Assembly: GCA_031279715.1 (NCBI GenBank)
Contig: JAITHY010000040.1
Span: 1-38,075, forward strand
Length of the DNA: 38,075 nucleotides
Source: Verrucomicrobiales bacterium
GTDB taxonomy: Bacteria; Verrucomicrobiota; Verrucomicrobiia; Methylacidiphilales; JAAUTS01
Direction of reading: 5' to 3'
Shown here: piece after piece, positions 1 through 38,075 of the stretch
Numbering within the stretch: position 1 is the stretch's first letter
How the letters are laid out: the number at the start of each line of letters is the position of its first letter
Position numbers and translations under genes: made by a program
The notes under the pieces: generated by a model
The model's database searches: none
The model's input: only the letters and a program-made list of their open reading frames with translations
What the model was told of the DNA's origin: nothing

Positions 1-395
1 ATCGGGACGGCGTTGCCGAGAGCGATCAGCCGCGTCAGCGTCGCTTGCAAATTGGCGCAGACTTTTCGGCTGTCCAAATCCCAGCTCGTCACGAGAATTT
101 GCGCGGCATGCAAGCCGTGTTTTTTGAACGCCTTGGAATACGCCTCCATCAGCTTCGGCTGGCCGATGGTGGCGCAAGCTTGCAAACCCTGACGGTCAGC
201 GGGACGTTTTTTCAAGCCCATCACCGACATTCCGGCGCTGATGGCGCCCGATGAAACCATGACAACGGCGCAGCCCTTGCGCCGCAACGCGTCGATTTGC
301 CGCGCGAAATTTTGAATGAGCGCGCGGTTGACGCCGCCGCTGTTGGTGAGCAGATTACTGCCGACTTTGACCACCCACAGGCAGTGTGATTTCAT
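1..395 (-). CDS. proB: Glutamate 5-kinase, N-terminal part (3' end runs off the left edge of the window)
   Basis: Absent from the ORF track because it has no in-window stop. My reverse-strand translation from the ATG at 395-393 reads MKSHCLWVVKVGSNLLTNSGGVNRALIQNFARQIDALRRKGCAVVMVSSGAISAGMSVMGLKKRP..., a canonical ProB / amino-acid-kinase N-terminus. The ATG overlaps the stop of the upstream ORF (ATGA). Confidence 0.85.
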   Translation of the reverse strand, partial: MKSHCLWVVKVGSNLLTNSGGVNRALIQNFARQIDALRRKGCAVVMVSSGAISAGMSVMGLKKRPADRQGLQACATIGQPKLMEAYSKAFKKHGLHAAQILVTSWDLDSRKVCANLQATLTRLIALGNAVP

Positions 396-730
396 TCAGG
401 CCAGTCCTTGGTGACCAGTTGCCGCGCGACGCCAACGCCGCGCGAGAAGGATTTGAAGCGGCCGATCAGGCGCCATGCTTGAGCCAGAGCTTCGAGCATG
501 CCCACGAATTGTATTTTCCGGCGAAAGGCCAGCGGCAACAGCACGCCGGCCAGCGGCGCGGCTATCACCAGACCCGGCCTGAACTTCGACAACAGCGCGG
601 AGCCGGCCTCCAGCCAGTGCAGACGGGTCTCGACTTGTCTCCAGTCGCGCCCAAACATTTCCCGCTGCGCCTCGCACACGCCGACCAGGCGGATTTTTTT
701 CTTCCGCAGCCCTTTTACTTCCCTAAGCAT
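392..730 (-). CDS. YqjK-like small membrane protein
   Basis: 112-aa ORF directly after the YqjE-like gene. It has a basic N-terminus (LRKKKIRL), an AQRE..W..... segment and one hydrophobic span, as in E. coli YqjK. It is third in a yqjD-yqjE-yqjK-type order. The start is uncertain because it overlaps the upstream ORF by 16 nt. Confidence 0.5.
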   Translation of the reverse strand: MLREVKGLRKKKIRLVGVCEAQREMFGRDWRQVETRLHWLEAGSALLSKFRPGLVIAAPLAGVLLPLAFRRKIQFVGMLEALAQAWRLIGRFKSFSRGVGVARQLVTKDWPE

Positions 731-1101
731 TCGCGGTCTCTCCTCAACTGGTTGAGTGTTTCCTCAAACGGTTTCGCCGTGCCGCCGAGGGTTTTCCTCA
801 GGTAACAAGCCGCCACCGCCGCCGCGGACAAATACAGCGCCGAGAGCACTGTCAGCGCGACCAGCAAATGGTCGGGGTTGCGCCAGAGCGCCAGAATCAC
901 CAACAGCGTCGCCAGCGCCAAGCCCAGCGCGCCCAACACCACCGTCAGCACCGTCCAGACCAGCGCCTGAATGATGCGGATTTTTTCCTCGTGCAATTCC
1001 GTCACGAACAAACTGCCACGCGTCTCCACCATGCCAATCAAATTGGTCGCCAGCCGCTTCAGCGAGGTGAACACGCCCGGCCCGGATGTGAATTCTGACA
1101 T
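715..1101 (-). CDS. YqjE-like (phage-holin-family / DUF1469) inner membrane protein
   Basis: 128 aa. The motif GMVETRGSLFVTELHEEK closely matches E. coli YqjE MVETRLRLAVVELEEEK, and two TM helices follow. Confidence 0.75.
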   Translation of the reverse strand: MSEFTSGPGVFTSLKRLATNLIGMVETRGSLFVTELHEEKIRIIQALVWTVLTVVLGALGLALATLLVILALWRNPDHLLVALTVLSALYLSAAAVAACYLRKTLGGTAKPFEETLNQLRRDRECLGK

Positions 1102-1104
1102 ACG

Positions 1105-1410
1105 TTATTTCCTGTTGATGAGAATGCCGATGAGCAGTCCGACGCCGAACGCGACGCCGATGGATTCATACGGATGCTCGCGGATGACACGGTCAGTGTG
1201 CTTCGCGCCCTCAATGACTTTCTCGCGCGCAACACCCTCGATTTGCCTGAGGCGCTCGCGGGCGGCGGCGAGTTTTATCGCCAGCTTTTCGCGGGCTTCG
1301 CCGGCTTTGCCGCGCAAGTCATCACCAGCGGCGTGGATCAACGCCTCGGCGTCGGAGATTACTTCCTTGACATCACTAACCAACTTTTCTTTTGTCACAG
1401 CTTCGGTCAT
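1105..1410 (-). CDS. ElaB/YqjD/DUF883-family membrane-anchored (ribosome-associated) protein
   Basis: 101 aa. A charged helical N-terminal part is followed by the C-terminal signature REHPYESIGVAFGVGLLIGILINRK (compare YqjD ...RENPWTGVGIGAAIGVVLGVLLSRR). Confidence 0.8.
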   Translation of the reverse strand: MTEAVTKEKLVSDVKEVISDAEALIHAAGDDLRGKAGEAREKLAIKLAAARERLRQIEGVAREKVIEGAKHTDRVIREHPYESIGVAFGVGLLIGILINRK

Positions 1411-1507
1411 GCGGTTATTGCAACAGAAAAAACGCCGCGGCGCAAGAACAGATACCGCGTATCAAAATTGACTTTGTCCGCCAAGCCGCCCATGATGGCA
1501 ACTTCGC

Positions 1508-3406
1508 ATGAATCATAACCAAATTTTTTCCGGGCATGGCGTGTCATGGCTGACGCAAGGGATTTCCGCCGCGGTGCTGTTGTGTTGCGCGACGCTGATA
1601 GTCGTGACTTCACTGCATTGGGGCGGGATGGTGCCGGAGGTGGCGGTGTGGCTGTTCCCCGTCGGCGCGGTGTTGTGGGCGCTGATAATGACGGCGTGCG
1701 CGCGGAATATTTTGCGCGGGGTGATTACGGGCGGTTGGTTGGAGTTATTCGTGCTGCTGTGGCTGGTGTACGCGCTGTTCTCGTATTTTCGCGCGCCCGC
1801 CGAGTATGTGGCCCGGTGGGAGTGGCTGTGGATTTTGACGTATGCGGGGGTGTTTATCTCGCTACGGAATCTGGTTCATTATCAGCGGTGGCATTACTGG
1901 CTGCTGGCGGTGATTTTGGTGTGCGCGGCGGCGGCGTGTTTGTTCGGCTTAATGCACCACGAGGGGGTTTATAAAATCTGGGGGCTGGAGCGTCCGGATT
2001 ACGGGCCGCGCATTTCAGGGACGTTTGGGTGTCCCAATCACTTTGGAAATTTTCTCGCCATGAGCGGGCTGGTCGCCGTCGGGTTTGGATTTTTCAACAA
2101 GATCAAGTGGCCGCTGAGGTTGATCTGCTTCTATTTGTTTGTCATGTTCAGCGCGGGAATTTTTTACTCGGTTTCACGCGGGGCGATGCTGGCGTGGACG
2201 GCGGGAATTTTCATGGTGACGCTGTTTCTGTTCATTGACAGCCGCACCTCGTGGAAACTAAAGCTGGGATTTTTGCTGGCGATTTTGCTGGGTGTCGGCG
2301 CTTGTGTTTTTATCGTCACCAACAATGAGTTCGCCCTGTCGCGCGTGGAGCAAACGATGCGCGGCGACATCCGGCTGCTGCTGGCGGAGGACGCCATCAA
2401 AATTTGGGGAGAGAACAAGTTGCTGGGCAGCGGGATGGCGACGTTTGATTTCTGGCACCAGCGGCTGCACCAGGACGCATTTTTCGGGCGCGCGATTTAC
2501 ACGCATAACGATTATTTGAATTTGCTGTCGGACTACGGACTGGTGGGCGCGGTGATTGTCAGCGGCTTCCTCGCGGCGCTGGTGGCGCGGTTGTGGGCGC
2601 GGACGCGGCGCGAGCTGGAACCCGCCGACCAGCAAATCGCCGCGCGCATGGCATGGTGCGTGCTGGCGGCGATGGCGGTTCACTCGACGTTTGATTTCAA
2701 TCTGCATATCCCCGCGTGCGCGCTGGCGTTCTTCGGCATTGTGGCGGTTGGCGCGGCGCAACCGCGGCGGCAGCAAACCGCGGGATTTCTCGCGCACGCG
2801 GGCAGCATCGCGCTCATTGTCAGCGGCGCGGTGGCGTTGTATTTTCTTGCGACGCTGACGGTGAAGACCGGGCGATCGTTGCGTTTTTTCAACCAGCCCG
2901 AGGAACAACTGGCGGCGCTGTCCCCGGAGCAAGTGGCGGCGGACGTGGCGCGGTTGCGCCATCTCGACCCCGCCAACAATGAGGCCTTTGAAAAAGCCGG
3001 TGACATCCTGCGTTTCCAAGCCGCCATGTTGAACCGGCAAATCAACACCGCCGCTGACGCCGCCAAATTATTAATCGAGCGGGAAACCCTGGGGCAACAG
3101 GCGTTGCAATATTACTCGTTCGCCCAGCGCGCCAACGCGCTCTCCGACTCGTCGCTCATCAAACAGGCGCTGACACTGGACACCCTGCAACGCCACGCTG
3201 AGGCTCAGCTATTTTACGCCAAGGCGCTGGCCAACCAGCCGCATAATTCTTTCTTTCACTATTATTACGGCTTTCACCTCGCCGTCACGGGCGAATACGC
3301 CCTGGCGCGCAAGGAATTTCAAACCGCCCTCAGCGCCCCCGTCATCCGCAATGTTGACAAAGAAATCCGCCACCTGGCGGAGCAGGCGCTCAGCGCGTTG
3401 CCGTAA
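1508..3406 (+). CDS. O-antigen ligase (Wzy_C) family polytopic membrane protein with C-terminal TPR-like repeats
   Basis: 632 aa with more than 10 predicted TM helices. It carries the Wzy_C-type loop (SRGAMLAW ... HNDYLNLLSDYGLVGAVIV). The soluble C-terminal tail is helical-repeat rich (YYSFAQRANALSDS..., FYAKALANQPHNSFFHYYYGFHL). Confidence 0.75.
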   Translation: MNHNQIFSGHGVSWLTQGISAAVLLCCATLIVVTSLHWGGMVPEVAVWLFPVGAVLWALIMTACARNILRGVITGGWLELFVLLWLVYALFSYFRAPAEYVARWEWLWILTYAGVFISLRNLVHYQRWHYWLLAVILVCAAAACLFGLMHHEGVYKIWGLERPDYGPRISGTFGCPNHFGNFLAMSGLVAVGFGFFNKIKWPLRLICFYLFVMFSAGIFYSVSRGAMLAWTAGIFMVTLFLFIDSRTSWKLKLGFLLAILLGVGACVFIVTNNEFALSRVEQTMRGDIRLLLAEDAIKIWGENKLLGSGMATFDFWHQRLHQDAFFGRAIYTHNDYLNLLSDYGLVGAVIVSGFLAALVARLWARTRRELEPADQQIAARMAWCVLAAMAVHSTFDFNLHIPACALAFFGIVAVGAAQPRRQQTAGFLAHAGSIALIVSGAVALYFLATLTVKTGRSLRFFNQPEEQLAALSPEQVAADVARLRHLDPANNEAFEKAGDILRFQAAMLNRQINTAADAAKLLIERETLGQQALQYYSFAQRANALSDSSLIKQALTLDTLQRHAEAQLFYAKALANQPHNSFFHYYYGFHLAVTGEYALARKEFQTALSAPVIRNVDKEIRHLAEQALSALP

Positions 3407-3452
3407 CGGTTGCATTTTCCCAAAACAACAGGTATCTTTTATTATTAAAACT

Positions 3453-4514
3453 ATGCCTGAAACTTCACCAGAGTTGTCACCAGGTCGCGGGATTGTCATG
3501 AGCAGCCGCGTCAGGCTCGCGCGTAATTTGAAAGACCATCCGTTTCCCGGCTGGCTGAAAAAAAAACAGCGCGAGGATTTGCTCGGCATTCTCCAGCCCG
3601 CGATCAGCCGCCTGCCGGAGATGCGCTCGCCGTTCCTCAACCAGGCGATGGACACATTCAACCCGCTGGACAAACAAATGCTGGTGGAAGAGCATCTCAT
3701 CAGCCGCGAGCACGCCGCGAAAAACTCCGGCAGCGGCATCATCATCAGCAACGACAAGACGCTGAGCGTAATGATTAACGAGGAAGACCACTTCCGTTTG
3801 CAGGCGATTTATTCCGACCTTCATCTGATGGAAGCGTGGCACGCGATTGACCGTATCGACTCGGAATTGGAAAGCGGGCTGACCTTTGCGTTCTCACCGA
3901 GGCTGGGCTACCTGACCGCCTGCCCCACCAATGTCGGCACGGGAATGCGCGCGTCGGTCATGCTGCACCTGCCGGGACTGGTGCTGAGCGATCAAATCAA
4001 CCAAGTCATCAAGTCGGTGAACCAAATCGGACTGGCGGTGCGCGGCTTGTACGGCGAGGGCACGGAAGCTCTCGGCAATTTATTCCAAGTCTCCAACCAA
4101 ATCACCCTCGGCGAAAGCGAGCAGGATATTTTAAACCGCCTGCTGAAAGTCATCCAACACCTGATTGAACACGAGCACAACGCCCGCCAGAAAATCGCGC
4201 AGGAACGCAGCCGTGTCATCGCCGACCAGCTTGGGCGCGCTTACGGTGTCATTTCGCATGCCTACTCGATTTCGTCGAAGGAGGCGCTGAACCTGCTGTC
4301 GCTGCTCATCCTTGGCGTGGACTTGGGGCTGTGGCCGAAAAGTTTGCGGGCCAAGATTGACGATTTATTCATCCACACGCAGCCGGCGCATTTGCAAAAA
4401 GCCGCCGAGAAAAAACTGGGCGCGGAGGAACGGGACGCGGTGCGCGCCGATTTATTGCGGGAAAAATTGAAATCCATCCCCGCGCCTGGCATTAAAAAAT
4501 TGAAAGGGATTTGA
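3453..4514 (+). CDS. mcsB: Protein arginine kinase McsB (ATP:guanido phosphotransferase)
   Basis: Tracked ORF 3351..4514, trimmed to the ATG at 3453, which lies after the upstream stop at 3406. Phosphagen-kinase motifs are present: SSRVRLARNL, MINEEDHFRLQ, CPTNVGTGMRASVMLHLPGL, RGLYGEG. Its stop overlaps the clpC ORF. Confidence 0.9.
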   Translation: MPETSPELSPGRGIVMSSRVRLARNLKDHPFPGWLKKKQREDLLGILQPAISRLPEMRSPFLNQAMDTFNPLDKQMLVEEHLISREHAAKNSGSGIIISNDKTLSVMINEEDHFRLQAIYSDLHLMEAWHAIDRIDSELESGLTFAFSPRLGYLTACPTNVGTGMRASVMLHLPGLVLSDQINQVIKSVNQIGLAVRGLYGEGTEALGNLFQVSNQITLGESEQDILNRLLKVIQHLIEHEHNARQKIAQERSRVIADQLGRAYGVISHAYSISSKEALNLLSLLILGVDLGLWPKSLRAKIDDLFIHTQPAHLQKAAEKKLGAEERDAVRADLLREKLKSIPAPGIKKLKGI

Positions 4515-4534
4515 TTATGGCTGGAGAAGAACCA

Positions 4535-7012
4535 ATGAATAATTTTACACCACGCGCGCAACAGGTGCTGGCGCTGGCGCGCAAGGAGGCCGACCGCTTC
4601 AACCACAACTACGTCGGCACGGAACATTTATTGCTTGGCCTGATCAAACTCGGCCAGGGTGTCGCTGTCAATGTGTTGCAAAAGATGGGGCTGGATCTCG
4701 AAACCGTCCGCATGGAAGTCGAGAAACAAGTCGGCTCCGGCCCCGACACCAAGGTTGGCGGCAACATCCCCTACACGCCGCGCGTGAAAAAAGTGCTGGC
4801 GCTGGCGGGCAAGGAGGCCAGGACGCTGAACCACAGCTATGTCGGCACGGAACACATTTTGCTCGGCTTGCTACGCGAGGGGTGCGGCGTGGCCGCACAG
4901 GTGTTAAAGTCATTGGACGTGGACTTGGGGAAGGTGCGCAACGAAATCCTGAAGGAGCTTGACCCGAATTTCGAGCCGCCGGAATACCCGACTTCCAGCA
5001 ATGACCAGCCCAACACGAAAAAAGATCAAAAGACACCCGCGCTCAACGCCTTCGGACGCAATCTCACCGAAATCGCCGCCGCCGGTAACATGGACCCGGT
5101 CATCGGACGGAAAAACGAAATTGAGCGTGTCATTCAGATTTTGTGCCGCCGCACCAAGAACAATCCCGTCCTCATCGGCGAGGCGGGCGTGGGCAAAACC
5201 GCCATTGTCGAGGGGCTTGCGCAAGAAATCGCCGCTGGCAATGTGCCAGAGTTGTTGCGCGACAAGCGCGTCATCACCCTCGACCTCGCGCTGATGGTGG
5301 CGGGCACCAAGTACCGCGGGCAATTCGAGGAGCGCATCAAGGCGGTGATGGAAGAAGTTCGCAAGAACAAAAACATCATCCTGTTCATCGACGAGTTACA
5401 CACCATCGTCGGCGCGGGCGGCGCTGAGGGCGCGATGGACGCCTCAAACATCATCAAGCCCGCCCTGTCACGCGGCGAGTTGCAATGCGTCGGCGCGACC
5501 ACGCTGAACGAGTACCGCAAGCACATCGAGAAAGATTCCGCGCTGGAGCGCCGTTTCCAAAGCGTAAAGGTGGACGCGCCAAGCGTGGACGAGGCGATTC
5601 AAATTTTGAAGGGCTTGCGCCCGAAATACGAGCAACACCACCACGCGAAAATCACTGACGCCGCCATTGAACAAGCGGTGAGGCTCAGCGACCGTTACCT
5701 CACCGCGCGGTTCCTGCCGGACAAGGCGATTGACATCATGGACGAGGCCGGCTCCCGCGCCCGCATCCGTGCGACCACCACGCCGCCCGGCTTGAAGGAA
5801 CTGGAAGCCGAGATGGAGAAAATCCGCGTCGAGAAAGAAGACGCCATCAAACATCAGGATTTTGAAAAAGCCGCCGCCTTGCGCGATCGTGAAAAAGCCG
5901 CCAAGGATAGCTACGAGGCAACCACAGCCGACTGGCGCAAGAGACGAGACGAGCAAGAGGTGCGGGTCGATGTGGACGACATCTACACCGTGGTCTCAAA
6001 ATGGACGGGCGTGCCGCTGACACGCCTGGAGTCAAAGGAAATGGAGCGACTGCTCAACATCGCCGAGGTGCTGCACAACAAAATCATCGGACAGGACGAC
6101 GCTGTTGATGCGCTGGCAAAGGCGTTGCGCCGTTCGCGCGCCGACTTGAAAGACCCAAACCGACCCATCGGCTCCTTCATTTTCCTTGGACCCACTGGCG
6201 TGGGCAAAACCCACCTGGCCAAGAGTCTCGCCGAGTATGTCTTTGGCGACACCGACTCGCTCATCCAACTGGACATGAGCGAATACATGGAAAAATTCAA
6301 CGTCTCACGGTTGGTGGGTTCACCCCCCGGCTACGTCGGTTATGAAGAGGGCGGGCAACTCACGGAAAAAGTGCGCCGCCGTCCGTACGCCGTCGTGCTG
6401 TTCGACGAAATCGAAAACGCACTCCCCGACGTGTGGAACCTCTTGCTGCACATCTTGGAGGACGGGCAAATCACCGACAGCCTCGGACGCAAGATTGACT
6501 TTCGCAACACCATTATCCTGATGACCTCCAACGTCGGCGCGGACTTGATGAAGAAGCAAACCACCGTCGGCTTCGGCATCCCAAGCGAGGAACAGGATTA
6601 CGCGGCCATCAAGGACAAATTGCTGGCGGAGGCCAAAAAAACTTTCAAGCCGGAATTCCTCAACCGCCTCACCGATATCGTCGTTTTCCACTCGCTGAAC
6701 CGCGAACATCTCGCGCAAATCGTACGGCTGGAAATCGACAAAGTGCACAAACGCCTGACCACACGCCACGTCACGCTGAAGGTGAGCGATGCCGCGCTGC
6801 AATTTCTCATCGACAAAGGTTATGAGCCGACTTACGGTGCGCGCCCGTTGCGGCGGGCGATTGAGCGGTATTTGGAGGACCCGATTGCCGAGGAACTCAT
6901 CCGCGGCAACTTGAAATCCAACTCCACCGTATTAATCGAAGTTGCGGGGGACAAACTGACGTTCAAGCCGGACGCCACTCCGACCACGAAGACGCTAAAA
7001 CCCGACGAATAA
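4535..7012 (+). CDS. clpC: ATP-dependent Clp protease ATP-binding subunit ClpC (class I AAA+, two NBDs, UVR-type middle domain)
   Basis: Duplicated Clp_N repeats (GTEHLLLGL and GTEHILLGL). Walker A motifs GEAGVGKTA and [12 protein letters not shown]-like linker ([14 protein letters not shown]). I prefer the ATG at 4535 ([12 protein letters not shown]), preceded by GGAGAAG. The tracked ORF begins at a TTG at 4511. Confidence 0.93.
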
Positions 7013-7095
7013 TCCCGCGCAGAGACCGTCAGCGGCAGCGGACAAATTGATTAAATTTGAATTTTCCGCCGGCTCTGTCATGATTGGCGTTTCAC

Positions 7096-9552
7096 ATGGC
7101 TGTAAAACGCGAGAATAACAAGGAACCACGATTGCTCATCCAAATCGGCGCGCTGATATTGGTGCCGCTTGGCGCGCTCACACTGCTGGCGTTGCTGTCG
7201 TTCGATAAAAACGACCTCGGGTTGTTTCACGAACCCGTCAATGTGCCGCTGAAAAACCTCGTCGGCCCCGTCGGCGCGTACTGGGCGGGCGGACTGATCT
7301 TCATGTTCGGGCTGGCGGCTTACCTTGTGCCGCCGCTTCTGGTCGGCGGCTCGCTGGTTGCATTATTTCATCTTTTCAAACGCGAATACGTTTTCAAAAT
7401 CATCTGGCTCACGCTGGTTATGCTCAGCGCTGCCGCATTGCTGCAACTGCTCAAGCCGGTTTTCAAAATATTCGACGGCTACCTGACTGTCGAGGGGCAC
7501 CCCGGCGGTGAAATCGGCTACTGGCTGAATGACTGCCTGCTCGCCAATTACATGGGCAACGCCGGTTCCGCCATCGCGATACTGACGGTCTATCTGGTGA
7601 GTTTTATTTTGCTGTTTGAAATCCGCCCCATCGTGCTGGCACGGCAAACAATCACCTGGCTCAAGGCGTGGCACGAGGCGCGCGAACAAGCCAAGCTTGA
7701 CGCCGCCGACCCGTTGGAACGGCTGGAGCACGAGGAACGGCGGCTGCGGCGCGAGGCGCGGGAGTTGGAGAAAAAAATGTCGCGCAAGGGCGCTGACAGT
7801 GACGAATTAATACCGCCGGCCTTGGGTCGTGAATCGCGGCGGACGCCGAAAATTGTGGACACAACGGTGCCGTTGAAAAAAGAGGAGGAGCCGGTCAAGC
7901 CGCTGACCGTCAGCACCCCCTCGGCGCCCAGGCCCGCGCCAAAACCGCGCGAGAAAACCACAACGTCAGCGTCCTATGAGAATTATGAGCTTCCGCAACT
8001 TTCGCTGCTCGCCAGCAATGACAATCCCGGAAAAGCCGGCACGGACACGGAGGAACTGGAACGGCAGCGCGCGCTGTTGGTGGAAACACTGTTGCAATTC
8101 GGCATTGAAGTCTCGCCCGGCGACATCACCAAAGGCGCAACCATCACGCGCTACGAATTGTATCCCGCGGTTGGAGTCCGCGTGGAGCGCATCGCCGCAA
8201 TGGAACGCAACATCGCCCGCGCCATGAAAGCCGAGCGGGTCAACATCCTCGCCCCAATCCCCGGCAAGGACACCGTCGGCGTCGAGGTGCCGAACACACA
8301 AAAAGTGAAAATCGTCCTCAGCGATTTGTTCGCCTCCGCCGCATGGCGCAACACCAGCGGCAAGCTGCCCATCGCTCTCGGCAAGGACGTGTACGGCAGC
8401 GTGCTTGTGACCGACCTTGCCGCCATGCCGCACTTGCTCATCGCGGGCACCACCGGCAGCGGCAAGTCAGTCTGCGTCAACTCCATTCTGCTGAGCTTGC
8501 TCTACCGTTTCAGCCCGGATGACTTGCGGATTATTTTGGTCGACCCCAAAGTCGTCGAGTTGCAGGTGTACAACGATCTGCCGCACCTCGTCGTCCCCGT
8601 TGTCACTGATCCGAAAAAAGTGCTCGTCGCGCTGCGGTGGGTCATTAACGAAATGGAAAAACGCTACCGGCTGATGGCCAGGTCCGGCGTCCGCAACATC
8701 ACCGCCTATAATCAGCACGCCAACGAACGCAAAAAACAACAGGAAAAACTCGACCTGGAAAAAACCCTCGCCGAAGCCGCCGCCAACGATGAAATCGACC
8801 CCGCTGATGATGAGCCGGACACCACCCTGCCCGGCTTCGCCGCTGACGATGACGAGGAGCCGCCGCCCGACCATTTGCCCTACATTGTGGTGATTGTCGA
8901 CGAGTTGGCGGACTTGATGCAAACCTCGCCCGCTGACGTTGAAATGGCGATTGCGCGACTGTCAGCGAAGGCGCGCGCCGCCGGCATCCATCTCATCATC
9001 GCCACGCAAACCCCGCGCGCGCAGGTCATCACCGGCGTCATCAAAACCAACGTGCCGTGCCGCATCGCCTTCCAAGTGCCCAGCGCGCTGGATTCCCGCG
9101 TCATCCTCGACGAAAACGGCGCGGAAAATTTACTCGGCAAAGGCGACCTGCTCTACCTGCCGCCCGGATCCGCCAAGCTCATCCGCGCGCAGGGCGCCTT
9201 CGTCAGCGACGATGAAGTCGCCAAGGTGGTCGACTTCATCAGCGCGCAATGCCAGCCATCCTACGAGGTGGAAATTCACACCAAACTCGCGCGCGGCGCT
9301 GACAGTGACAGCGAGGAATTATCCGAGGAAGACCTGGAGTTGCTGCGCAAAAGCATCGAGGTGTTCCGGCAGGAAAAACGCGGCTCCACCTCGCTCTTGC
9401 AACGCCGCCTCCGCATCGGCTATGGCCGCGCCTCATGGGTGGTGGACTGGCTGGAGCAAAAAGGCGTGGTCGGCCCCAAAGACGGCGCGAAAGACCGCGA
9501 GTTGCTCACTGACTTTGACCAACTTGATCCGGAAACTTTGTTTGAACACTAA
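7096..9552 (+). CDS. ftsK: DNA translocase FtsK
   Basis: N-terminal TM helices and a long Pro/charged linker. Motor domain with Walker A AGTTGSGKS and Walker B IVVIVDELADLM. C-terminal gamma winged-helix (STSLLQRRLRIGYGRASWVVDWLEQKGVVGP). Start taken as the ATG at 7096; the tracked ORF starts at a TTG at 7084. Confidence 0.93.
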   Translation: MAVKRENNKEPRLLIQIGALILVPLGALTLLALLSFDKNDLGLFHEPVNVPLKNLVGPVGAYWAGGLIFMFGLAAYLVPPLLVGGSLVALFHLFKREYVFKIIWLTLVMLSAAALLQLLKPVFKIFDGYLTVEGHPGGEIGYWLNDCLLANYMGNAGSAIAILTVYLVSFILLFEIRPIVLARQTITWLKAWHEAREQAKLDAADPLERLEHEERRLRREARELEKKMSRKGADSDELIPPALGRESRRTPKIVDTTVPLKKEEEPVKPLTVSTPSAPRPAPKPREKTTTSASYENYELPQLSLLASNDNPGKAGTDTEELERQRALLVETLLQFGIEVSPGDITKGATITRYELYPAVGVRVERIAAMERNIARAMKAERVNILAPIPGKDTVGVEVPNTQKVKIVLSDLFASAAWRNTSGKLPIALGKDVYGSVLVTDLAAMPHLLIAGTTGSGKSVCVNSILLSLLYRFSPDDLRIILVDPKVVELQVYNDLPHLVVPVVTDPKKVLVALRWVINEMEKRYRLMARSGVRNITAYNQHANERKKQQEKLDLEKTLAEAAANDEIDPADDEPDTTLPGFAADDDEEPPPDHLPYIVVIVDELADLMQTSPADVEMAIARLSAKARAAGIHLIIATQTPRAQVITGVIKTNVPCRIAFQVPSALDSRVILDENGAENLLGKGDLLYLPPGSAKLIRAQGAFVSDDEVAKVVDFISAQCQPSYEVEIHTKLARGADSDSEELSEEDLELLRKSIEVFRQEKRGSTSLLQRRLRIGYGRASWVVDWLEQKGVVGPKDGAKDRELLTDFDQLDPETLFEH

Positions 9553-9562
9553 CGAAAACGTC

Positions 9563-10462
9563 ATGAGTAATTTTCCCAAGAAAACCATCGGACGGCAATT
9601 CGCCGAGGCGCGCCAGGCCAAAGGCTGGACCCTCGCCGAGGCGGCGCGGCGCACCAACTTGAAACCGTCGCTGCTGGCGTCCCTCGAGGCCGATGAATTT
9701 GACAAACTCCCCAGCGCCGCCAACACGCGCGGCTTCATCCGCCTCTACGCTCGCGAATTGGGACTCGACGGCTGGAAATTACTGCGCCAATTCAGCGGCG
9801 CTGACGATGTGCCCGTAGACATGCTGGAACTGGAGCCGGAGGATTTGGAAGCAATCCCCGCGCGCATCCACAACCGCCCCTCCGCCTCGCAAGGCATCGG
9901 GCTGACCCTCATCATCACCATTATTTTTATCGCCCTCGGCATTGTTGCCTACAAATTGTACACCGTCAGAACATTCATCGCCCAGCCGCCCGATCCACCA
10001 ACAGAAACGACCGCGCCGGAACCCGAGCCGCCGCCCGTCACCAAGCCCGCTGACGATGACATCCCCGTCGCCAAGCCTGTCGAAATGCTGCCGCCCAAAG
10101 CCCAGCCGCTCAATCCTCCGCCGCCCGCCAACAGCGAACCCGCGGCGCCCAAGGCGCCCGAATCCGTCCCCCAACCCGCCGCCATCGTCAACGGTTTGCG
10201 GCTTCAGTTGATTGCCGACGCTGATGTTGACGAAAAATCCCGCTGGGTGCGCGTCACCGCTGTCCGTGACGGAAAAAAAGAAGAGCTTTTCGGCGGCCAT
10301 TTGCCCGCCGGCAGCGTCTTTCCCGCCGACACCCCCTGGATTGCGGATTTCTTCATTATCAGAATGAGCGAGGCCTCCGCCATTGGCATCATCCAAAACG
10401 GCGGCGTCATCCAAAAATACGAACTCCCCGGCGCCCAAACCGTCAGGCTGCCGGTGAACTAA
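9563..10462 (+). CDS. RodZ-like cytoskeleton protein (HTH + TM + Pro-rich linker + DUF4115-like C-terminal domain)
   Basis: Tracked ORF 8939..10462 trimmed to the ATG at 9563, after the ftsK stop. N-terminal HTH (IGRQFAEARQAKGWTLAEAARRTNLKPSLLASLE, FIRLYAREL), one TM (GLTLIITIIFIALGIVAY), a Pro-rich tract, then a beta-rich C-terminus. Confidence 0.7.
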   Translation: MSNFPKKTIGRQFAEARQAKGWTLAEAARRTNLKPSLLASLEADEFDKLPSAANTRGFIRLYARELGLDGWKLLRQFSGADDVPVDMLELEPEDLEAIPARIHNRPSASQGIGLTLIITIIFIALGIVAYKLYTVRTFIAQPPDPPTETTAPEPEPPPVTKPADDDIPVAKPVEMLPPKAQPLNPPPPANSEPAAPKAPESVPQPAAIVNGLRLQLIADADVDEKSRWVRVTAVRDGKKEELFGGHLPAGSVFPADTPWIADFFIIRMSEASAIGIIQNGGVIQKYELPGAQTVRLPVN

Positions 10463-10518
10463 GAGACCGGCGGGATTTGATTGCAGCGCGGGGCGGGCGT
10501 CCTATAGTTACGGCAGCC

Positions 10519-11103: not shown

Positions 11104-11105
11104 TT

Positions 11106-14495: not shown

Positions 14496-14500
14496 ACCGG

Positions 14501-14515
14501 CGCTGACCGTCAGCG
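14501..14515. repeat. Palindromic double copy of the window's hyper-abundant word (CGCTGAC-C-GTCAGCG) between convergent genes
   Basis: It fills most of the 22-bp gap between the permease stop (14493-14495) and the peptidase stop (14518-20, minus strand). It could act as a short bidirectional hairpin. Confidence 0.6.
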
Positions 14516-25325: not shown

Positions 25326-25410
25326 GGATTAAATTCTAACCACGAAGACACCTCTGCACGAAGTCCTAATTTGACGGAACTTCACGCCTGGTGGTTTAAA
25401 TTTTCGCGCA

Positions 25411-25446: not shown

Positions 25447-25461
25447 GGGTGACGGTCAGCG

Positions 25462-27282: not shown

Positions 27283-27435
27283 TATTTTTACCTTTCGGGT
27301 GAATTGTTGCGTGTAATCACACCCCATCCAGCAGGGTGTGAAAAACGCAAAAATTATAGGTAGCGTGACAAAGGCTGGCAATGCTTTATTTTTTCAAAAA
27401 CCAGGCTGCGCAAACGAAGGCGGCTCTTTTTAAAA

Positions 27436-30400
27436 TCACTCCCCGCTGATGCTGGCGGCTTCGGTGGGTTCCTCGCTCTTCTTGATGCTCACTAACGTCG
27501 CGGGGATGCGGCTGCTCTTGAAGAAGCTCGTTTTGTCGAGCACATGTTTTTGGATTGCTTCAAACAACAAGAACGAGACGGGCGTTACGTACAGCGTCAG
27601 CACTTGCGAAACCAGCAAACCGCCGATGATGGCCAGCCCCAACCCGACGCGCGTGCCACCACCAGCGCCCCAGCCCACGGCCAGCGGAATCGCGCCCATC
27701 ACCGCCGCCAGTGTGGTCATGATAATCGGGCGGAAGCGTTCGACACACGCCTCCTCGACGGCCTCGCGCGGTTTTTTGCCAAGGTCCATTTGTTGCAATG
27801 CGAAGTCCACAATCAGAATGCCATTCTTCTTTACGATGCCGATAAGCATAAAAATACCTATCATTGAGTAGAGTGAAAAATCCTGGCCGAACACCCACAG
27901 CGTCGCCAAGCCGCCGACGGTGGCGGGAACCAGAGTGCTGAGCACCGTCAGCGGGTGCAGATAGCTCTCATACAAAATGCCGAGGATGACATACATGATG
28001 AAGACGCTGAAGATGAGCAAATATGGAAACACCTCAAACAGTTGCGCGAAAATGTCGGCGTCTCCCTTCAACCCGTAGAGGATGCCTTGCGGAATATTAT
28101 CATGCGCGAGTTTGTTAATTTCATCGGCGACGGTGCCGATGGCGACGCCGGGCTTCAGGTTAAAGAACACGGTGACACTGGTGAATTGGTCAATGTGGTT
28201 GACCTGCTGCGGGCCGAGCAGTTGCCTCCACTTCACCACGGCGTTGAGCGGGACAAGGTTGCCGCTGACGGACTTGACATAGAGCAGGCTCAAGTCCTCG
28301 GGATTGGCCCGGTAGCGGTCGTCAACTTCCATGATGAGCTGGTATTGGTCCCGCTCGGTTTTGATCAGGTACAAATAATTTTGCGAATACGCGTTGCGGA
28401 GCGCCGTCTCAATATCCTGCACGCTGACGCCGTAGGTCATGGCTTGCTCGCGCAGGATGTCGATTTGCAATTGCGGAAATTTTTGGTTCATGTCCGAGGA
28501 AACTGTTTGCATTCCGGGAATCATCCACATTTTGGCAATCATCACGTCGGCGGTTTTGTACACCTGGTCGGGGTCGAGGCCGCTCATGGCGAAGGCGTAT
28601 TTGCCCTGGGTGTTGGCGGTCGCGCCGGCGCTGATTTTGAGCACTGGCTCCGGTTGCAGCAACGGCATAATGCCTGGAATTTGCATCATCTGCGCGGTCA
28701 ATTCGCCAATGACGCTGTTGATGTCCTTGCGCTGATCGCGGTCCTTGAGGAACAGGAATGTGCCGCCGAGGTTGGACGGTAAAAATCCGGTGACGCCGGT
28801 AATGGTAATGCCGACGTTGAGGTCGGGATGCTTCCGTAAAATTTCCAAGATGCGCCGCTGATAGCCCTGCATTTTTTCCGGCGAGGCGTCCTGCGAGGCA
28901 ATGAACGCGCCGCGGACGAGACCGCTGTCACCCGCGGGCAGGAAGGTGCGCGGCAGTTGCAGGAAAATCCACACGCTGCCAATGGCGCAAACAATCCACG
29001 CCAAGATTGAAATCCACGTGTGGTGCAAAAAGAAATCCAGCGATTTGCCATACAGCCGCGTCAGCCCGCCGAACCATTTTTCCATGAACCGCTGCATCAG
29101 CGTCAGCTTGCGCTGTCCCGCGCGCTCGCCCAGCACGCGCGAGCACATCAGCGGCGTCAGCGTCAGCGACACCACGCCGGAGCAAATCACCGTGATGATA
29201 ATCGTCACGCCAAACTCGCGGAAAATCAACCCGACTTGCCCGGGCATGAACACCAGCGGGATGAACACCGCCGCCAGTGACAGCGTCATGGACAAAATCG
29301 TGAAGCTGATTTCCCTCGCGCTGTTGAACGTCGCCGCCATCACACCCTCGCCCGATTCCATTCGCCGCACGGTGTTTTCCAAAAACACGATGGCGTCGTC
29401 CACCAAAAAACCAATCGCCAGCACCAGCGCCAGCAGCGACAGGTTGTCAATGCTGAACCCGCACAAATTCATCACGATAAACGTCATCAACAGCGAGATG
29501 GGCAGCGCCACCGCCGGCACAATGGTGTCCGCCGCCTTGCCGAGGAACACGTAAATCACCAGCACCACCAGCACAAAGGCGATGAACAGCGTCTCCATCA
29601 CCTCGTTTAGCGAGGCGATAATCGTCTGCGACCGGTCATACACCACGAACATCTGCGCCGAGCCGGGCAACAGCAATTTCATTTGCGGCAAAATTTCGCG
29701 CACCTGCTCCGCCACGGCGACCGCGTTCGCGTCGGTTTGCTTCGACACCGCCATCACCACCGTCTCCGCGTCCGGCATCGAACCCGCGTAATAAAACCGC
29801 GCGAGGATGCGCTCGTTGTTGGTGGACGATTTCACCTCCGCCACGTCGCGCAAATACACCGCGTGACCGTCAGCGTAACCGATGATAAGTTTCGCGTAAT
29901 CCTCCGCCTCAACCAACTGGCCTCGCGGCGTCAGCAAATAAGTGCGGTGCTTGCCGTCGAATTGCCCCGCGCCCTGGTATTGTGTCGCCTTGGAAATCGC
30001 GCCCGCCACATCCTGCATAGACAACCCGCGCGCGCTGACGGCGGCGGGGTCAACCTTCACACGCACCGCCGGCGCGGAGGAATACACCTGCACGTTGGAG
30101 ACGCCGTTCACAATGCTAATGCGTTGGCCGATGTTTGTGGTGGCCAACTCGTACAACTGCCCCGTGGTCAGCGTTTGGCTGCTGATGGCGATGTAAATGA
30201 TGGGCTGGTCGTTCGGATTGGTTTTCCTGAACACCGGCGGCGAGGGCAAATCCGGCGGCAAGTTGCCTGTCGCCTGCGTGATGGCGGTTTGCACGTCAGT
30301 CGCGGCGGCGTCAATGTGCTTGGTGAGTTGAAACTCCAGGTTCATCGTGGTGACGCCCTGCGTGCTGGACGAGGTGATTTGCTTGATGCCCGGAATTTGC

Positions 30401-30618
30401 AAAAACTGTTTCTCCAACGGCGTGGCAATGTTGTTCGCCATCGTCACCGGATTCGCCCCGGGATACGCGACCGTGACACTAATGACGGGCGAGGGAATCT
30501 CCGGCAAATCATTCACCGGCATCCGCTGATAACAAATAATCCCGAACACGATGACGCTGACCGTGACCATCATGGTAAACACGGGACGCCGGATGAACGG
30601 ATCGGACAAGCTGCTCAT
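27436..30618 (-). CDS. RND (HAE1, AcrB/MexB-type) multidrug efflux permease
   Basis: 1060 aa, 12-TM RND architecture. N-terminus FIRRPVFTMMVTVSVIVFGI, conserved DDAIVFLEN and DFALQ segments. Confidence 0.93.
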   Translation of the reverse strand: MSSLSDPFIRRPVFTMMVTVSVIVFGIICYQRMPVNDLPEIPSPVISVTVAYPGANPVTMANNIATPLEKQFLQIPGIKQITSSSTQGVTTMNLEFQLTKHIDAAATDVQTAITQATGNLPPDLPSPPVFRKTNPNDQPIIYIAISSQTLTTGQLYELATTNIGQRISIVNGVSNVQVYSSAPAVRVKVDPAAVSARGLSMQDVAGAISKATQYQGAGQFDGKHRTYLLTPRGQLVEAEDYAKLIIGYADGHAVYLRDVAEVKSSTNNERILARFYYAGSMPDAETVVMAVSKQTDANAVAVAEQVREILPQMKLLLPGSAQMFVVYDRSQTIIASLNEVMETLFIAFVLVVLVIYVFLGKAADTIVPAVALPISLLMTFIVMNLCGFSIDNLSLLALVLAIGFLVDDAIVFLENTVRRMESGEGVMAATFNSAREISFTILSMTLSLAAVFIPLVFMPGQVGLIFREFGVTIIITVICSGVVSLTLTPLMCSRVLGERAGQRKLTLMQRFMEKWFGGLTRLYGKSLDFFLHHTWISILAWIVCAIGSVWIFLQLPRTFLPAGDSGLVRGAFIASQDASPEKMQGYQRRILEILRKHPDLNVGITITGVTGFLPSNLGGTFLFLKDRDQRKDINSVIGELTAQMMQIPGIMPLLQPEPVLKISAGATANTQGKYAFAMSGLDPDQVYKTADVMIAKMWMIPGMQTVSSDMNQKFPQLQIDILREQAMTYGVSVQDIETALRNAYSQNYLYLIKTERDQYQLIMEVDDRYRANPEDLSLLYVKSVSGNLVPLNAVVKWRQLLGPQQVNHIDQFTSVTVFFNLKPGVAIGTVADEINKLAHDNIPQGILYGLKGDADIFAQLFEVFPYLLIFSVFIMYVILGILYESYLHPLTVLSTLVPATVGGLATLWVFGQDFSLYSMIGIFMLIGIVKKNGILIVDFALQQMDLGKKPREAVEEACVERFRPIIMTTLAAVMGAIPLAVGWGAGGGTRVGLGLAIIGGLLVSQVLTLYVTPVSFLLFEAIQKHVLDKTSFFKSSRIPATLVSIKKSEEPTEAASISGE

Positions 30619-30620
30619 TG

Positions 30621-31748
30621 TCAGGATTGCCCTCCGGCGGGTTGACTGTCAGCGGGCGGCGCGACGCGGATTTTCGCACCCGGGCTGAGCATCAGCTGTC
30701 CGTCCAGCACCACCGTCTCGCCGGCACTGACGCCCTTTTCAATCACCAACCATCCCCCCTGCCGCTGCCCCTCGGTGACCATTCGCAAATCCACCGTTTG
30801 GTCGGGATTCACCACAAACACGTACGCCCCGTTGTGCCCGACCTGCACAGCGTCAGCGGGTATCAATACCGCGTCGGGAATGTCCGCCAGCACCAGCTTC
30901 ACTTTCACAAACTGCCCGGCCCAAAACAACCGGTCCTCATTCGGCATAATCGCCCGCAACATCACCGTCCCCGTCCCCGCGCGAATCATGTTGTCCAAAA
31001 AATACAACTCCCCGTAACGACTTTTCGACTCATCATCCGGAAAATACACCTGCACCCTCAGCGTGCCCTTTTGAAAATACTCCCGCACCCGCGGCAGATC
31101 CGCCTCCGCCACGATAAAATCCACATACATCGGGTCCATGCGCTGAATCGACACCAACGTTTTCCCGCTGTAAGCGTTCACCACATTGCCGATGTCCACC
31201 TGATGCGCCCCCATTTTCCCGTCAATGGGAGCGGTGATATGGCAGTAACCAAGGTTAATCTCCGCCGTCTCCAGCGCCGCCTCGTCCGCCTTGACCGTCG
31301 CCCGGTTCACCTCCACGGTGGTTTTCAAATTCTCCAAATCCTGCGCCGAAATGTAATTGCCCGCAACCAGGCTCTCATTGCGCTTCAACTGCTCCTGATT
31401 ATACGCCAACATCGCCCGATCCGACGCCAGCCGCGCCGCCGCCTGCTCCCTGGCGGCTTGGTACGGGCGGGGGTCAATGGTGAACAACGGCTCGCCCGCT
31501 CTCACCTCCTGCCCGTCCGTGAAATGAATTTTCGTCACCGCGCCCGAAACTTGCGGCATAATCAACACGCTCTGCAACGCCTGGCACGTCCCGATTTCCT
31601 CAAGATACAACGGCACCTTTCGCGCGACCGCCTGCGCCGTCGTCACCAACACCGGCGGACGCTGCGGCGGCGCCTGCTCTTTCTTCGCGCAGCCGCTGAC
31701 CATGACCGTCAGCGCCGCCACCAAATGAAAATTCAAAACTTTCCTCAT
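30621..31748 (-). CDS. RND efflux periplasmic adaptor (membrane fusion protein, AcrA-like), lipoprotein
   Basis: Lipobox LTVMVSGC, then lipoyl/hairpin/beta-barrel pattern (GEPLFTIDPRPYQAA..., LGYCHITAPIDG). Lies 2 nt upstream of the RND gene. Confidence 0.9.
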   Translation of the reverse strand: MRKVLNFHLVAALTVMVSGCAKKEQAPPQRPPVLVTTAQAVARKVPLYLEEIGTCQALQSVLIMPQVSGAVTKIHFTDGQEVRAGEPLFTIDPRPYQAAREQAAARLASDRAMLAYNQEQLKRNESLVAGNYISAQDLENLKTTVEVNRATVKADEAALETAEINLGYCHITAPIDGKMGAHQVDIGNVVNAYSGKTLVSIQRMDPMYVDFIVAEADLPRVREYFQKGTLRVQVYFPDDESKSRYGELYFLDNMIRAGTGTVMLRAIMPNEDRLFWAGQFVKVKLVLADIPDAVLIPADAVQVGHNGAYVFVVNPDQTVDLRMVTEGQRQGGWLVIEKGVSAGETVVLDGQLMLSPGAKIRVAPPADSQPAGGQS

Positions 31749-31751
31749 AAA

Positions 31752-33224
31752 TCATCTCCCTGTCACACCATCCGCCAACAGCGAACCCGTCGCATTGGCC
31801 AGGCCGGCGGAAGCGTTGAACAGCCCCGTCCGCGCCGCCGCCAGTGTCGCCCGCGCCGCCGCCAAATCATTCTGCGCCGTCAACACATCAATCATATTCT
31901 TCAACCCGCTGCGATAGCTGATGCTGACCGAGTCAAAATTGCTCTGCGACGCCGCCAGCAGCGCCCGCGCCGCGTCCACTTGCTTCGCCGCCGTCTTGAA
32001 CGTCACGTAACCAGTCACCACCTCCGCCACCACGCCAAGCTGCCCACCCAGCAAATCCGCCCGCGCCGCCGCCGCCAGTGCCTTCGCGTTTTTCACTTGA
32101 TACGCCTTGCTGCCGCCGTCAAACAAATCAAAACTGAACGACAACACCGCCGACGCATTATCCTGATGATCCACCCCGTTCGGCGGCGACCGGTCACTCG
32201 CGTAATAACTGCGCTGCAACCCCACGTTCATCGTCAGCGACGGCCAGCGGTTCGCCTCCGCCAAATCCACCGATGCCAACCGCGACCGCCACGCATGATA
32301 CTTCGCCGCCAAATCCGGCCGCTGACGAAACGCCAAATCAATCAACCCGTCCACCTGCTCCTCCAACACCGTCAGCGACGGCTCGCCGGCCGGCGGCGCG
32401 ATGGTCAGCGGCGCATTGCCCGGCACGCCGAGGCTCGTCGCCAGTGCCACCCGCGCCGTGCTCACCTTCCCGCGCGCGCCTTCCAGATTGTACCGAAAAC
32501 GCTCCAAATTTTGTTTCGCCTGCGCCAAATCCGTCGAAGTCGCCAGCCCCGCGTTTACTTTGATTTGCGTTTGCCGGCACACCGCGTCCGCCAGTTCCAG
32601 CGCCACCTCAGCGTTCTCCAAATTGACATTGGCGCCGTCCAAATTGTAATACGCATTCATCACCATCAGCGTCACGCTTTGCAGCGCCTGGTTGAAATTA
32701 AAATTCTGGCTCAGCAAATTAAACCGCGCCTGCTCCTGCGCCGCCCTGCGCGACCCGAAATCAAGCAACAAATATTGCATCCGCGCCGTCGGTCCAACAT
32801 ACAACTGATTCACCGTGTTCCGGCTGGGCGCCGTCGGCTGCGTCGTATGCGCCCCGCCCGCCTCCACCCCCACGCTGACGGTGGGATAATCCAGTGCCTT
32901 CTGCACGCCAAGTTGCGCCGCCAGCGCGTTTGCCTGCTGCCACGCCGCTGACGTTGACGGATTGCGCCGCAACGCCTCGTCCACCAGTTCCGGTAACGAC
33001 CACTGACGTTCAGCGTCGTCAAACGGCGCTGTCAAACTCACCTCCCGCGCCGACGCCGGCAACCCGGCCCCCGGATTGCCAAACGGCACCGTCAGCGAGG
33101 AGGCGGGGTCAACCCCCTCCTCCACCCGCACCGCCGGCACATCCTCAGCGCGCGCGCCCGACACCGTCATCATCAGCGCCGCCAAGAACCCATATTTCCC
33201 GCAAGATAACACCATAAAATGCAA
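31752..33224 (-). CDS. TolC-like outer membrane efflux factor (OMF)
   Basis: 490 aa. Signal peptide and two OEP repeats (LPELVDEALRRNPS..., DLAQAKQNLE..., LDVLTAQNDL). First gene of the OMF-MFP-RND operon. Confidence 0.85.
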   Translation of the reverse strand: MHFMVLSCGKYGFLAALMMTVSGARAEDVPAVRVEEGVDPASSLTVPFGNPGAGLPASAREVSLTAPFDDAERQWSLPELVDEALRRNPSTSAAWQQANALAAQLGVQKALDYPTVSVGVEAGGAHTTQPTAPSRNTVNQLYVGPTARMQYLLLDFGSRRAAQEQARFNLLSQNFNFNQALQSVTLMVMNAYYNLDGANVNLENAEVALELADAVCRQTQIKVNAGLATSTDLAQAKQNLERFRYNLEGARGKVSTARVALATSLGVPGNAPLTIAPPAGEPSLTVLEEQVDGLIDLAFRQRPDLAAKYHAWRSRLASVDLAEANRWPSLTMNVGLQRSYYASDRSPPNGVDHQDNASAVLSFSFDLFDGGSKAYQVKNAKALAAAARADLLGGQLGVVAEVVTGYVTFKTAAKQVDAARALLAASQSNFDSVSISYRSGLKNMIDVLTAQNDLAAARATLAAARTGLFNASAGLANATGSLLADGVTGR

Positions 33225-33396
33225 TCCATTAAAAATAACCCTGAAATTTCACCGCCACAATTATAAAATAAAAATGCGTAAAAAGCCGAATGGCAGCCAA
33301 CTCCAGCATGGTTCATTTAACCGCGACGCCGTCATTTTGATAAATATTATTTTTCTTGCCATTATTAGGAAAATCATATAGATAAAAACACCCCCT
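33225..33396. promoter_or_regulatory. AT-rich divergent control region between the efflux operon and its LysR-type regulator
   Basis: 172 bp, visibly AT-rich, with an imperfect dyad ATTTTTCT-N10-AGGAAAAT near 33340-33370. Divergent LysR/target arrangement is typical. No operator could be proven. Confidence 0.4.
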
Positions 33397-34308
33397 ATGG
33401 AACTGCGCGAACTCCGCTATTTCATCGCCGTCGCCGAGGAATTGAATTTCTCCGCCGCCGCCAAACGTTTGCATTTGTCACAGCCGCCGCTAACCGCCGC
33501 CATTAAAAAATTGGAGGCGGAGCTGGCGGTGCGCCTGTTCAACCGCACCAGCCGCAAGGTCGAACTCACCGAGGCGGGCGCGCATCTGCTCGCGGCGGGG
33601 CGCCGCCTGCTCAACCACGCCCGCCAGGTCGCTGACGGCACCAGGGTGTACGGGCAGGGCAAGCGGGAAGTGTTGCGGCTGGCGTTTTTCATACTCGTCA
33701 CCCGCGACATTTTGCCCATGGCGCTGTCGCGTTTTCGCAAGAACTTTCCCAACGTTTATTTGGAATTTCAACATCTCCGTCCCGAAGATGCCGAGAAAAT
33801 CCTCACCGACGACCTTGCCGACGCGGTCATCGCCAATCATCTGCCGACCGGCGAGTTGCTGGCCTCCAAATCCTGGCTTCGCACCAGTCTGGTCGCCGCC
33901 CTGCCGCCGCACCATCCGCTGACAGTGAACAAGAAAATCAGCATCGCCGATTTGCGTGACGAGCAGTTTATCCTGAGCCATGACACCGCCCCGCAGTTGA
34001 CACAAAAGGCCCATCAATTCTGCCGCGCCGCTGGCGGTTTCGAGCCGCGTATCAAGCAATATTGCTCGGAAACCCTCGGCGCCCTGGCCTTGGTCGCCGC
34101 CGGTGACGGCGTTTCCATTTTCGATTCCAGCATTGAGTGGACCCGCACCGGCGCGACCTTTATTCCTTTCAAGGAGCCGACTCCCGCCATTCAATGGGGC
34201 GTCGCCTGGCGCAGGGACAAGGAAACCCCCGCGTTGCGCGGTTTGTTGCGGGAGCTTAACCGCGCGTTTGCCGGCGGCGCCATTAAACAGCCCCGGCAGG
34301 GCCGCTGA
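33397..34308 (+). CDS. LysR-family transcriptional regulator
   Basis: N-terminal wHTH MELRELRYFIAVAEELNFSAAAKRLHLSQPPLTAAIKKLEAELAVRLFNRTSRKVELTEAG, plus a LysR substrate-binding domain. Confidence 0.9.
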   Translation: MELRELRYFIAVAEELNFSAAAKRLHLSQPPLTAAIKKLEAELAVRLFNRTSRKVELTEAGAHLLAAGRRLLNHARQVADGTRVYGQGKREVLRLAFFILVTRDILPMALSRFRKNFPNVYLEFQHLRPEDAEKILTDDLADAVIANHLPTGELLASKSWLRTSLVAALPPHHPLTVNKKISIADLRDEQFILSHDTAPQLTQKAHQFCRAAGGFEPRIKQYCSETLGALALVAAGDGVSIFDSSIEWTRTGATFIPFKEPTPAIQWGVAWRRDKETPALRGLLRELNRAFAGGAIKQPRQGR

Positions 34309-34395
34309 CCGTGCGCGGGGTTTATTACGACGGCCCAATGCCCGCGCGCGAGGCAATATGAACACCCAATAACTCATCCGGATGAGGGATGCCGC

Positions 34396-35325
34396 TCACA
34401 CCTGTGTCTTGAAATACGCGATGGTGTGTTTCAACCCTTCTTCCAAAGGCACTTTCGGTTCCCAGCCGTCGAGGTGTTTTTTCGCCAGGGTGATGTCGGG
34501 GCGGCGTTGTTTGGGGTCATCAGCGGGGAGCGCCTTGTGGACGATTTTGCTTTTGCCTCCAACTTGCCCCAACACCAACTCGGCGAGTTGCAGCATGGTG
34601 AATTCACCCGGATTGCCGAGGTTGATGGGGCCGACGGCGCCGCTCTGGTTCATCAAACGGACAAAGCCCTCGATAAGGTCGTCCACATAACAGAACGAGC
34701 GCGTTTGCTGGCCGTCACCATAGACGGTGATATCCTCGCCGCGCAGGGCCTGGACAATGAAGTTGGAGACCACGCGCCCGTCATCGGGATTCATCCGCGG
34801 GCCATAGGTATTGAAGATGCGGACGATGCGGATGTCGGTTTTGTTCTCGCGGTGGTAGTCGAAGAACAGCGTCTCGGCGCACCGTTTGCCTTCGTCGTAA
34901 CACGAGCGGCGTCCGATGGGATTGACGTTGCCCCAGTAAGATTCCGGCTGCGGGTGAACGGCGGGGTCGCCGTACACCTCGCTGGTGCTCGCCTGAAAGA
35001 CTCGCGCCTTGACGCGCTTGGCGAGACCCAGGCAGTTGATGGCGCCCATGACGGAAGTTTTGACGGTCTTGATGGGATTGTACTGGTAGTGCGGCGGCGA
35101 GGCGGGGCAGGCGAGGTTGTAGATTTGGTCAACCTCAAACTTGAACGGGTCGATGACGTCATGGCGCACGAGTTCGAAATTCGGGCGTCCAATCAAGTGG
35201 GCGATGTTTTGTTTGCGTCCGGTGAAAAAGTTGTCGAGGCAAATTAACTCATGCCCCTGGCTGATAAGCCTGTCGCAAAGATGCGAGCCGAGAAAACCCG
35301 CGCCGCCGGTGACCAAAATCCTCAT
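34396..35325 (-). CDS. uxs: UDP-glucuronate decarboxylase (UDP-xylose synthase), extended SDR
   Basis: [29 protein letters not shown], catalytic [19 protein letters not shown]. Confidence 0.9.
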
Positions 35326-35334
35326 GGCTGGCGA

Positions 35335-36375
35335 TTATGCAAAGACGCGGCGATTTAGCCAGTTGAAAATGACGGTCAGCGCCCAGGTCAGCGCATTGGC
35401 GGCGAGCAACGCGCTGACCGGGAGCATCAGTTGGTGTTCCGCCAACAACCAGCCGCTGACGATGGGAATGGCGCATAATATCACCAGCACGGACATGACG
35501 CTGACGACGCGTTTTTTCAACAAGGCGAGTTGGCTCGCGATTAGTGCCGTCACCATCAGCGCGGCGAACAGCCATTCGTCCGGCACGGGGCGGGTGAAAT
35601 TGGCGGCGAACAAATCTTTCAACGCCTGGTAAAGCACCCGCGTGAACTCGCCTTCCGCGCCGACCAGCAGGATTTTTCCGCTGACAGCGGCCGGGTCAAC
35701 GAGGGGCGGGAGATTGTGGCGGAGCTGCTCGGCGGAGACAATCAATTGATAAAACCCGACGGCGGGCGCTTCGCCGTCGCCGTGAAGCGGCAGGCACCCG
35801 TCGCGGTCAACAGGGATGCGCGCGGGGTCGCCGCCGCCGAAGTATTGCAAGTAAGTTTGCAGGACGAACGTGGGAACGGTTTTCCCGCCGTCACTGACAA
35901 TGAGCGGAACACGCCGCGCCTCACCATCAGCGTCCGGCCACCATGGCGACGGCGCAACCCTGGCGGCCTGGGCAATCTCAGCGGGCGCCCCCGGCAGCAA
36001 CACCACGCGTTCAAACCGCCGGATTTGCCTGCCGAGTTGCGCGTCGTAAATTTTGTAATCCGCCTCGCCCGCCTCCAACGGAATGGCGATGGCGACCACG
36101 GCGGGCTTAAACTCGGCGATGGCGTTAAGAAACACCGCGTAATCCAAGTTCGACCACGGCCAACTTTGCCGGCCAAAATCCTGAGTCGTGACCAACACAA
36201 CGGGCGGCGCGGCGGGAATTTCCATCGGCAAAAAGCGGGCGGCAAGCCCCGCCGCGCGCGCGTCCCCGCCAGCCGCGAACCCAAGCAAATGCAACACCCA
36301 CCCCGCCCCGCTCACCGTCAGCGCCAGGCCGATGGCGAAGCCCCGCAAAAACGCGCCGCTGACAATCGTGTTCAA
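35335..36375 (-). CDS. Stand-alone CHASE2-domain membrane protein (no output domain)
   Basis: 346 aa. Topology is 1 TM, about 230 aa extracytoplasmic, then 3 C-terminal TM helices. The VVLVTTQDFGRQSWPWSNLDYAVFLNAIAEFKPAVVAIAIPL segment resembles the CHASE2 core (IDxxS...WPW.R..A.L...). Confidence 0.6.
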   Translation of the reverse strand: MNTIVSGAFLRGFAIGLALTVSGAGWVLHLLGFAAGGDARAAGLAARFLPMEIPAAPPVVLVTTQDFGRQSWPWSNLDYAVFLNAIAEFKPAVVAIAIPLEAGEADYKIYDAQLGRQIRRFERVVLLPGAPAEIAQAARVAPSPWWPDADGEARRVPLIVSDGGKTVPTFVLQTYLQYFGGGDPARIPVDRDGCLPLHGDGEAPAVGFYQLIVSAEQLRHNLPPLVDPAAVSGKILLVGAEGEFTRVLYQALKDLFAANFTRPVPDEWLFAALMVTALIASQLALLKKRVVSVMSVLVILCAIPIVSGWLLAEHQLMLPVSALLAANALTWALTVIFNWLNRRVFA

Positions 36376-36453
36376 AGCGTGACTTTTTTAGCAGATTTCT
36401 CAAATTGCCGCACACTATTTGAAAAACAATAATTTTTCAAAGAACCTGACGCA

Positions 36454-36480
36454 ACGCCGCCCGCTGACAACGGGCGGCGT
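36454..36480. other. Perfect 10-bp GC hairpin whose loop carries the CTGAC core, in the atpG upstream spacer
   Basis: ACGCCGCCCG-ctgacaa-CGGGCGGCGT. A separate AT dyad TTTGAAAAA-caataa-TTTTTCAAA lies at 36418-36441. Function unknown (attenuator, terminator or operator). Confidence 0.5.
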
Positions 36481-36580
36481 GATTCCTCCGCGGGGCCAAT
36501 GCTTTTTTTCACCCCGCCACGGCGTTAAAAAAGCTGGCTTGGAACCAAACTTGTTGTAAAGTTGGCAAACATTTTCAGCC

Positions 36581-37456
36581 ATGGGCACACGCGATATTCG
36601 CCGCCGTATCAAGTCGGTCAGGAACACCTCGCTCATCACGAAGGCAATGCAGATGGTGGCGACCTCCAAAATGGCGCAGGCGCAGGCGCAGGCGTTGCAG
36701 GGGCGCGCATTCGCCGCGCAGCTTGGCAAAATACTGCGTGACATAGGGCGGCATGCGCTGGAGGTGGAGCATCCGTTGTGGCGCGGCGCCGCTGACGGCG
36801 CGCCGCCCGCGGTGTTGTTGATTTCGACGGACAAGGGGCTGTGCGGGGGATTGAACGCCAATTTGTTCCGCGTGCTGGCAGCGCTGCCGGCGGAGACGGT
36901 GTTGGTCACCATCGGGCGGCGGGGGCGGCAGTTCGCCGCGCGCACAAAGCGGCGTTTGCTGGCGGATTTTCCCCTGCCGGAGCGGATCGCCTACCCTGCG
37001 GTGAAACACATCGCGGAGTATCTGTCGGAGGCTTTTCTCCGCGGCGAAATTGGCTCGCTGACGGTGTTATATCCGCGCTTTGTCAACACACTGGTGCAAA
37101 AGCCATTGCGGGAGCCGCTGCTGCCGCTGGCGGATTTGAATTGCTCAAACGTCGGCTTGCTGGGCGAAACAGTCCTCTCCGCTGACCATGACACGGGCGC
37201 GGACTTTGTGTACGAACCGTCAGCGTCAGCGGTGCGCGACAAACTGTTCCCCATGTACGTGAATTTCAATCTGTATCACATGCTGTTGGAAGCCCGCGCC
37301 TCGGAGCACAGCGCGCGCATGGTGGCGATGAAGAACGCGACAGACAACGCGCGGCAATTGACCAAGGACTTGACGCTGGAATACAACAAAGTGCGGCAGA
37401 CAGCCATCACGAACGAGATTTTGGAAATCGCGGCGGCGCAAGCGGCGGGGGATTGA
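36581..37456 (+). CDS. atpG: F1 ATP synthase gamma subunit
   Basis: MGTRDIRRRIKSVRNTSLITKAMQMVATSKM..., TDKGLCGGLN, C-terminal LEYNKVRQTAITNEILEIAAAQ. Confidence 0.9.
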   Translation: MGTRDIRRRIKSVRNTSLITKAMQMVATSKMAQAQAQALQGRAFAAQLGKILRDIGRHALEVEHPLWRGAADGAPPAVLLISTDKGLCGGLNANLFRVLAALPAETVLVTIGRRGRQFAARTKRRLLADFPLPERIAYPAVKHIAEYLSEAFLRGEIGSLTVLYPRFVNTLVQKPLREPLLPLADLNCSNVGLLGETVLSADHDTGADFVYEPSASAVRDKLFPMYVNFNLYHMLLEARASEHSARMVAMKNATDNARQLTKDLTLEYNKVRQTAITNEILEIAAAQAAGD

Positions 37457-37617
37457 CGTTGCGGCAAGCTGCCGGTCTGCGACCCTTTTTTTCAAAAACT
37501 CCTTGGCTAACGCGCCGAAAAAACAACCGCGATAAACCGCGCGCCCCGGTATTTCCCAATAAAAATATTTTTCAAAAAACCCTTGACGGGGCATGGTTTT
37601 TGTATAGTCTAAGCGGC

Positions 37618-38055
37618 CTATGGTGCAGAATACAATTCGCCAATTCGCCAATTCGCCAATTCGCCGTATGAGCCACCTCCGCCCAGTCCGCTCGTAAGGG
37701 GCGGAACTTTTTCCTTTTTCCAGCCCATTTCAACGACCCTTTTTACTCTTCCCAAGAGCGTTTTCAGCTTAATTGACACAACGGCAGAGACTTGCGCTGC
37801 CACTCCCAATTTTTCATCAGCCATTGATGAAGTTTCATCAGTCGTTGATGGAGTTCCATCAGTCGTTGATGGAGTTCCATCAGTCGTTGATGAAGTTCCA
37901 TCAGTCGTTGATGAAGTTTCATCAGTCGTTGATGGAGTTTCATCAGTCGTTGATGGAGTTCCATCAGTCGTTGATGAAGTTCCATCAGTCGTTGATGGAG
38001 TTTCATCAGCCGTTGATGGAGTTTCATCAGTCGTTGATGAAGTTCCATCAGTCAT
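37618..38055 (-). CDS. Candidate Thr/Ser/Asp-rich heptapeptide-repeat protein (TDGTSST/TDETPST)n; frame assignment uncertain
   Basis: Complete ATG-initiated 145-aa ORF in the track. Third codon positions in the repeat are mostly A/T (ACT GAT GGA ACT TCA TCA ACG), atypical for this GC-rich genome. The 3' part runs through the 8-bp repeat. Confidence 0.3.
   Translation of the reverse strand: MTDGTSSTTDETPSTADETPSTTDGTSSTTDGTPSTTDETPSTTDETSSTTDGTSSTTDGTPSTTDGTPSTTDETSSMADEKLGVAAQVSAVVSIKLKTLLGRVKRVVEMGWKKEKVPPLTSGLGGGGSYGELANWRIGELYSAP
37633..37664. repeat. Tandem octanucleotide repeat (CAATTCGC)x4
   Basis: Four perfect units at 37633, 37641, 37649 and 37657. The unit length is not a multiple of 3. 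Confidence 0.9.
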
Positions 38056-38075
38056 TAATAAAACCCCAACCGGAG
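37773..38075 (+). CDS. Alternative candidate: His/Leu heptad-repeat (HQSLMEF)n protein, open to the right window edge
   Basis: My own reading. The frame opens after TAA at 37770-37772, has a TTG at 37773, and has no stop through 38075, so it is not in the track. Repeat codons CAT CAG TCG TTG ATG GAG TTC have G/C at 6 of 7 third positions, matching the local codon style. No convincing RBS or ATG start. Confidence 0.3.
   Translation, partial: MTQRQRLALPLPIFHQPLMKFHQSLMEFHQSLMEFHQSLMKFHQSLMKFHQSLMEFHQSLMEFHQSLMKFHQSLMEFHQPLMEFHQSLMKFHQSLIKPQPE
37815..38055. repeat. 21-bp tandem repeat, 11 full units plus a partial one (consensus CATCAGTCGTTGATGGAGTTC)
   Basis: Units start at 37815, 37836, 37857 ... 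38025. Variation is confined to 3 positions (T/C, G/A, C/T). The repeat is contiguous with no spacers. Confidence 0.95.

Follow-up and report, generated by a model that had tools for sequence, protein, structure and literature searches.

A hyper-abundant, strand-neutral word in an uncultured Verrucomicrobiales bacterium and its variant in a sister clade: a putative tag resembling DNA uptake sequences

DUS, USS and HIP1 are hyper-abundant words that occur independently of reading frame and strand, and among relatives of Neisseria and Haemophilus, which carry DNA uptake sequences, the frequent word is accompanied by a sister-clade dialect at matching positions in genes; this pattern was hitherto known only from those uptake sequences. 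We observed the same pattern around a word whose sequence differs from all known words of this kind, starting from a window of 38,075 nt that constitutes the whole contig of a MAG from an uncultured Verrucomicrobiales bacterium. The best ungapped match of the word to AT-DUS, USS or HIP1 was no better than that of shuffled words, in agreement with the earlier note, which had recognized none of them in it, and this strengthens its reading as a word of the DUS/USS/HIP1 kind distinct from the known ones.

The plus strand of the window carries 61 copies of CGCTGAC and 54 of GTCAGCG by exact recount (115 in total, 3.0/kb), bearing out a manual tally of at least 60 and at least 54. In this bacterium the word extends to 12 bases, CGCTGAC-NN-TGA, on both strands, and CGCTGACNNTGA occurs 41 times; for CGCTGACNGTGA we counted 21 copies (13 forward, 8 reverse), at exactly the positions listed before, with none missed. 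In the logo the sites read g-c-CGCTGAC-G-(G/A)-T-G-A-(c/g), and information is confined to positions -2 to +13. Frame independence and strand neutrality, as previously claimed, were both evident: the word is present in four of the five stop-free reading frames, is equally frequent on the two strands, and reaches 3.5/kb in the 2,010 nt of non-coding DNA (exactly the seven copies reported, at 7028, 13171, 14501, 14509, 15241, 25455 and 36462) and 2.9/kb in coding DNA.

Against the 115 observed copies of the 7-mer, dinucleotide shuffles gave 7.2 ± 3.1 (maximum 15), Markov models of orders 1, 2 and 3 gave 6.8, 17 and 30, codon permutation gave 18.8, and synonymous-codon shuffles that kept every protein gave 28.8 ± 4.0 (maximum 44). 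The high-order Markov check proposed in the earlier note calls for a caveat. An order-5 model trained on the same 38 kb predicted 100–102 copies of the 7-mer (observed/expected ~1.1), but the test is circular, because the model draws its expectation from how often the 6-mers within the word occur. Even so, the 12-mer remained 8-fold above this model. Specifically, the expectation for CGCTGACNNTGA was 0.05–0.5 under orders 1–3 and 4.9 under both order 5 and the synonymous shuffle. In related genomes of similar GC the 7-mer reaches only 0.0–0.6/kb.

The word recurs in relatives. Two of them (~77% protein identity) carry it at 2.2–2.5/kb, and three others, which form a sister clade, carry a two-letter variant, CGCTAAY-NN-CGA, at the same gene positions. 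Neither form was found in the nearest outgroups (66–69% identity) or in ~150 other loci. The word is confined to a small clade, with a second dialect in its sister clade. Sites were gained through substitution in place, at weakly conserved protein positions and avoiding conserved residues; several orthologous sites were converted between the clades at both dialect positions, and within a dialect sites were retained more often than other 7-mers. The clade restriction with its sister dialect, the converted orthologous sites and the avoidance of conserved residues each strengthen the assignment to the DUS/USS/HIP1 kind. The explanation we favour, with about an even chance of being right, is a putative DUS/USS-like tag for recognizing the cell's own DNA: competent cells would preferentially take up DNA bearing it, and it would accumulate because of that preference. 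Alternatively, the word may be of the HIP1 type, or an abundant protein may bind at these sites.

Two arguments that the earlier note had added to this interpretation did not hold, although its comparison with DUS, USS and HIP1 did. The stretch 3175–6013 is indeed empty, pepck has two copies and pfk none, but mfd contains 10 rather than about 12, and its 3.2/kb equals the window mean, so this genome-maintenance gene is not enriched. Inverted pairs, said to lie at gene ends, were not in excess: within 60 nt we found 8 convergent and 7 divergent pairs against ~5 each expected by simple arithmetic from densities. Only the pair at 14501–14515 is situated between the ends of genes, and a T-run is absent there; the same coordinates hold a perfect 15-nt palindrome. 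It was present as described, as were the partial palindromes at 190, 7901 and 23503 and the overlapping copies at 29156 and 37219.

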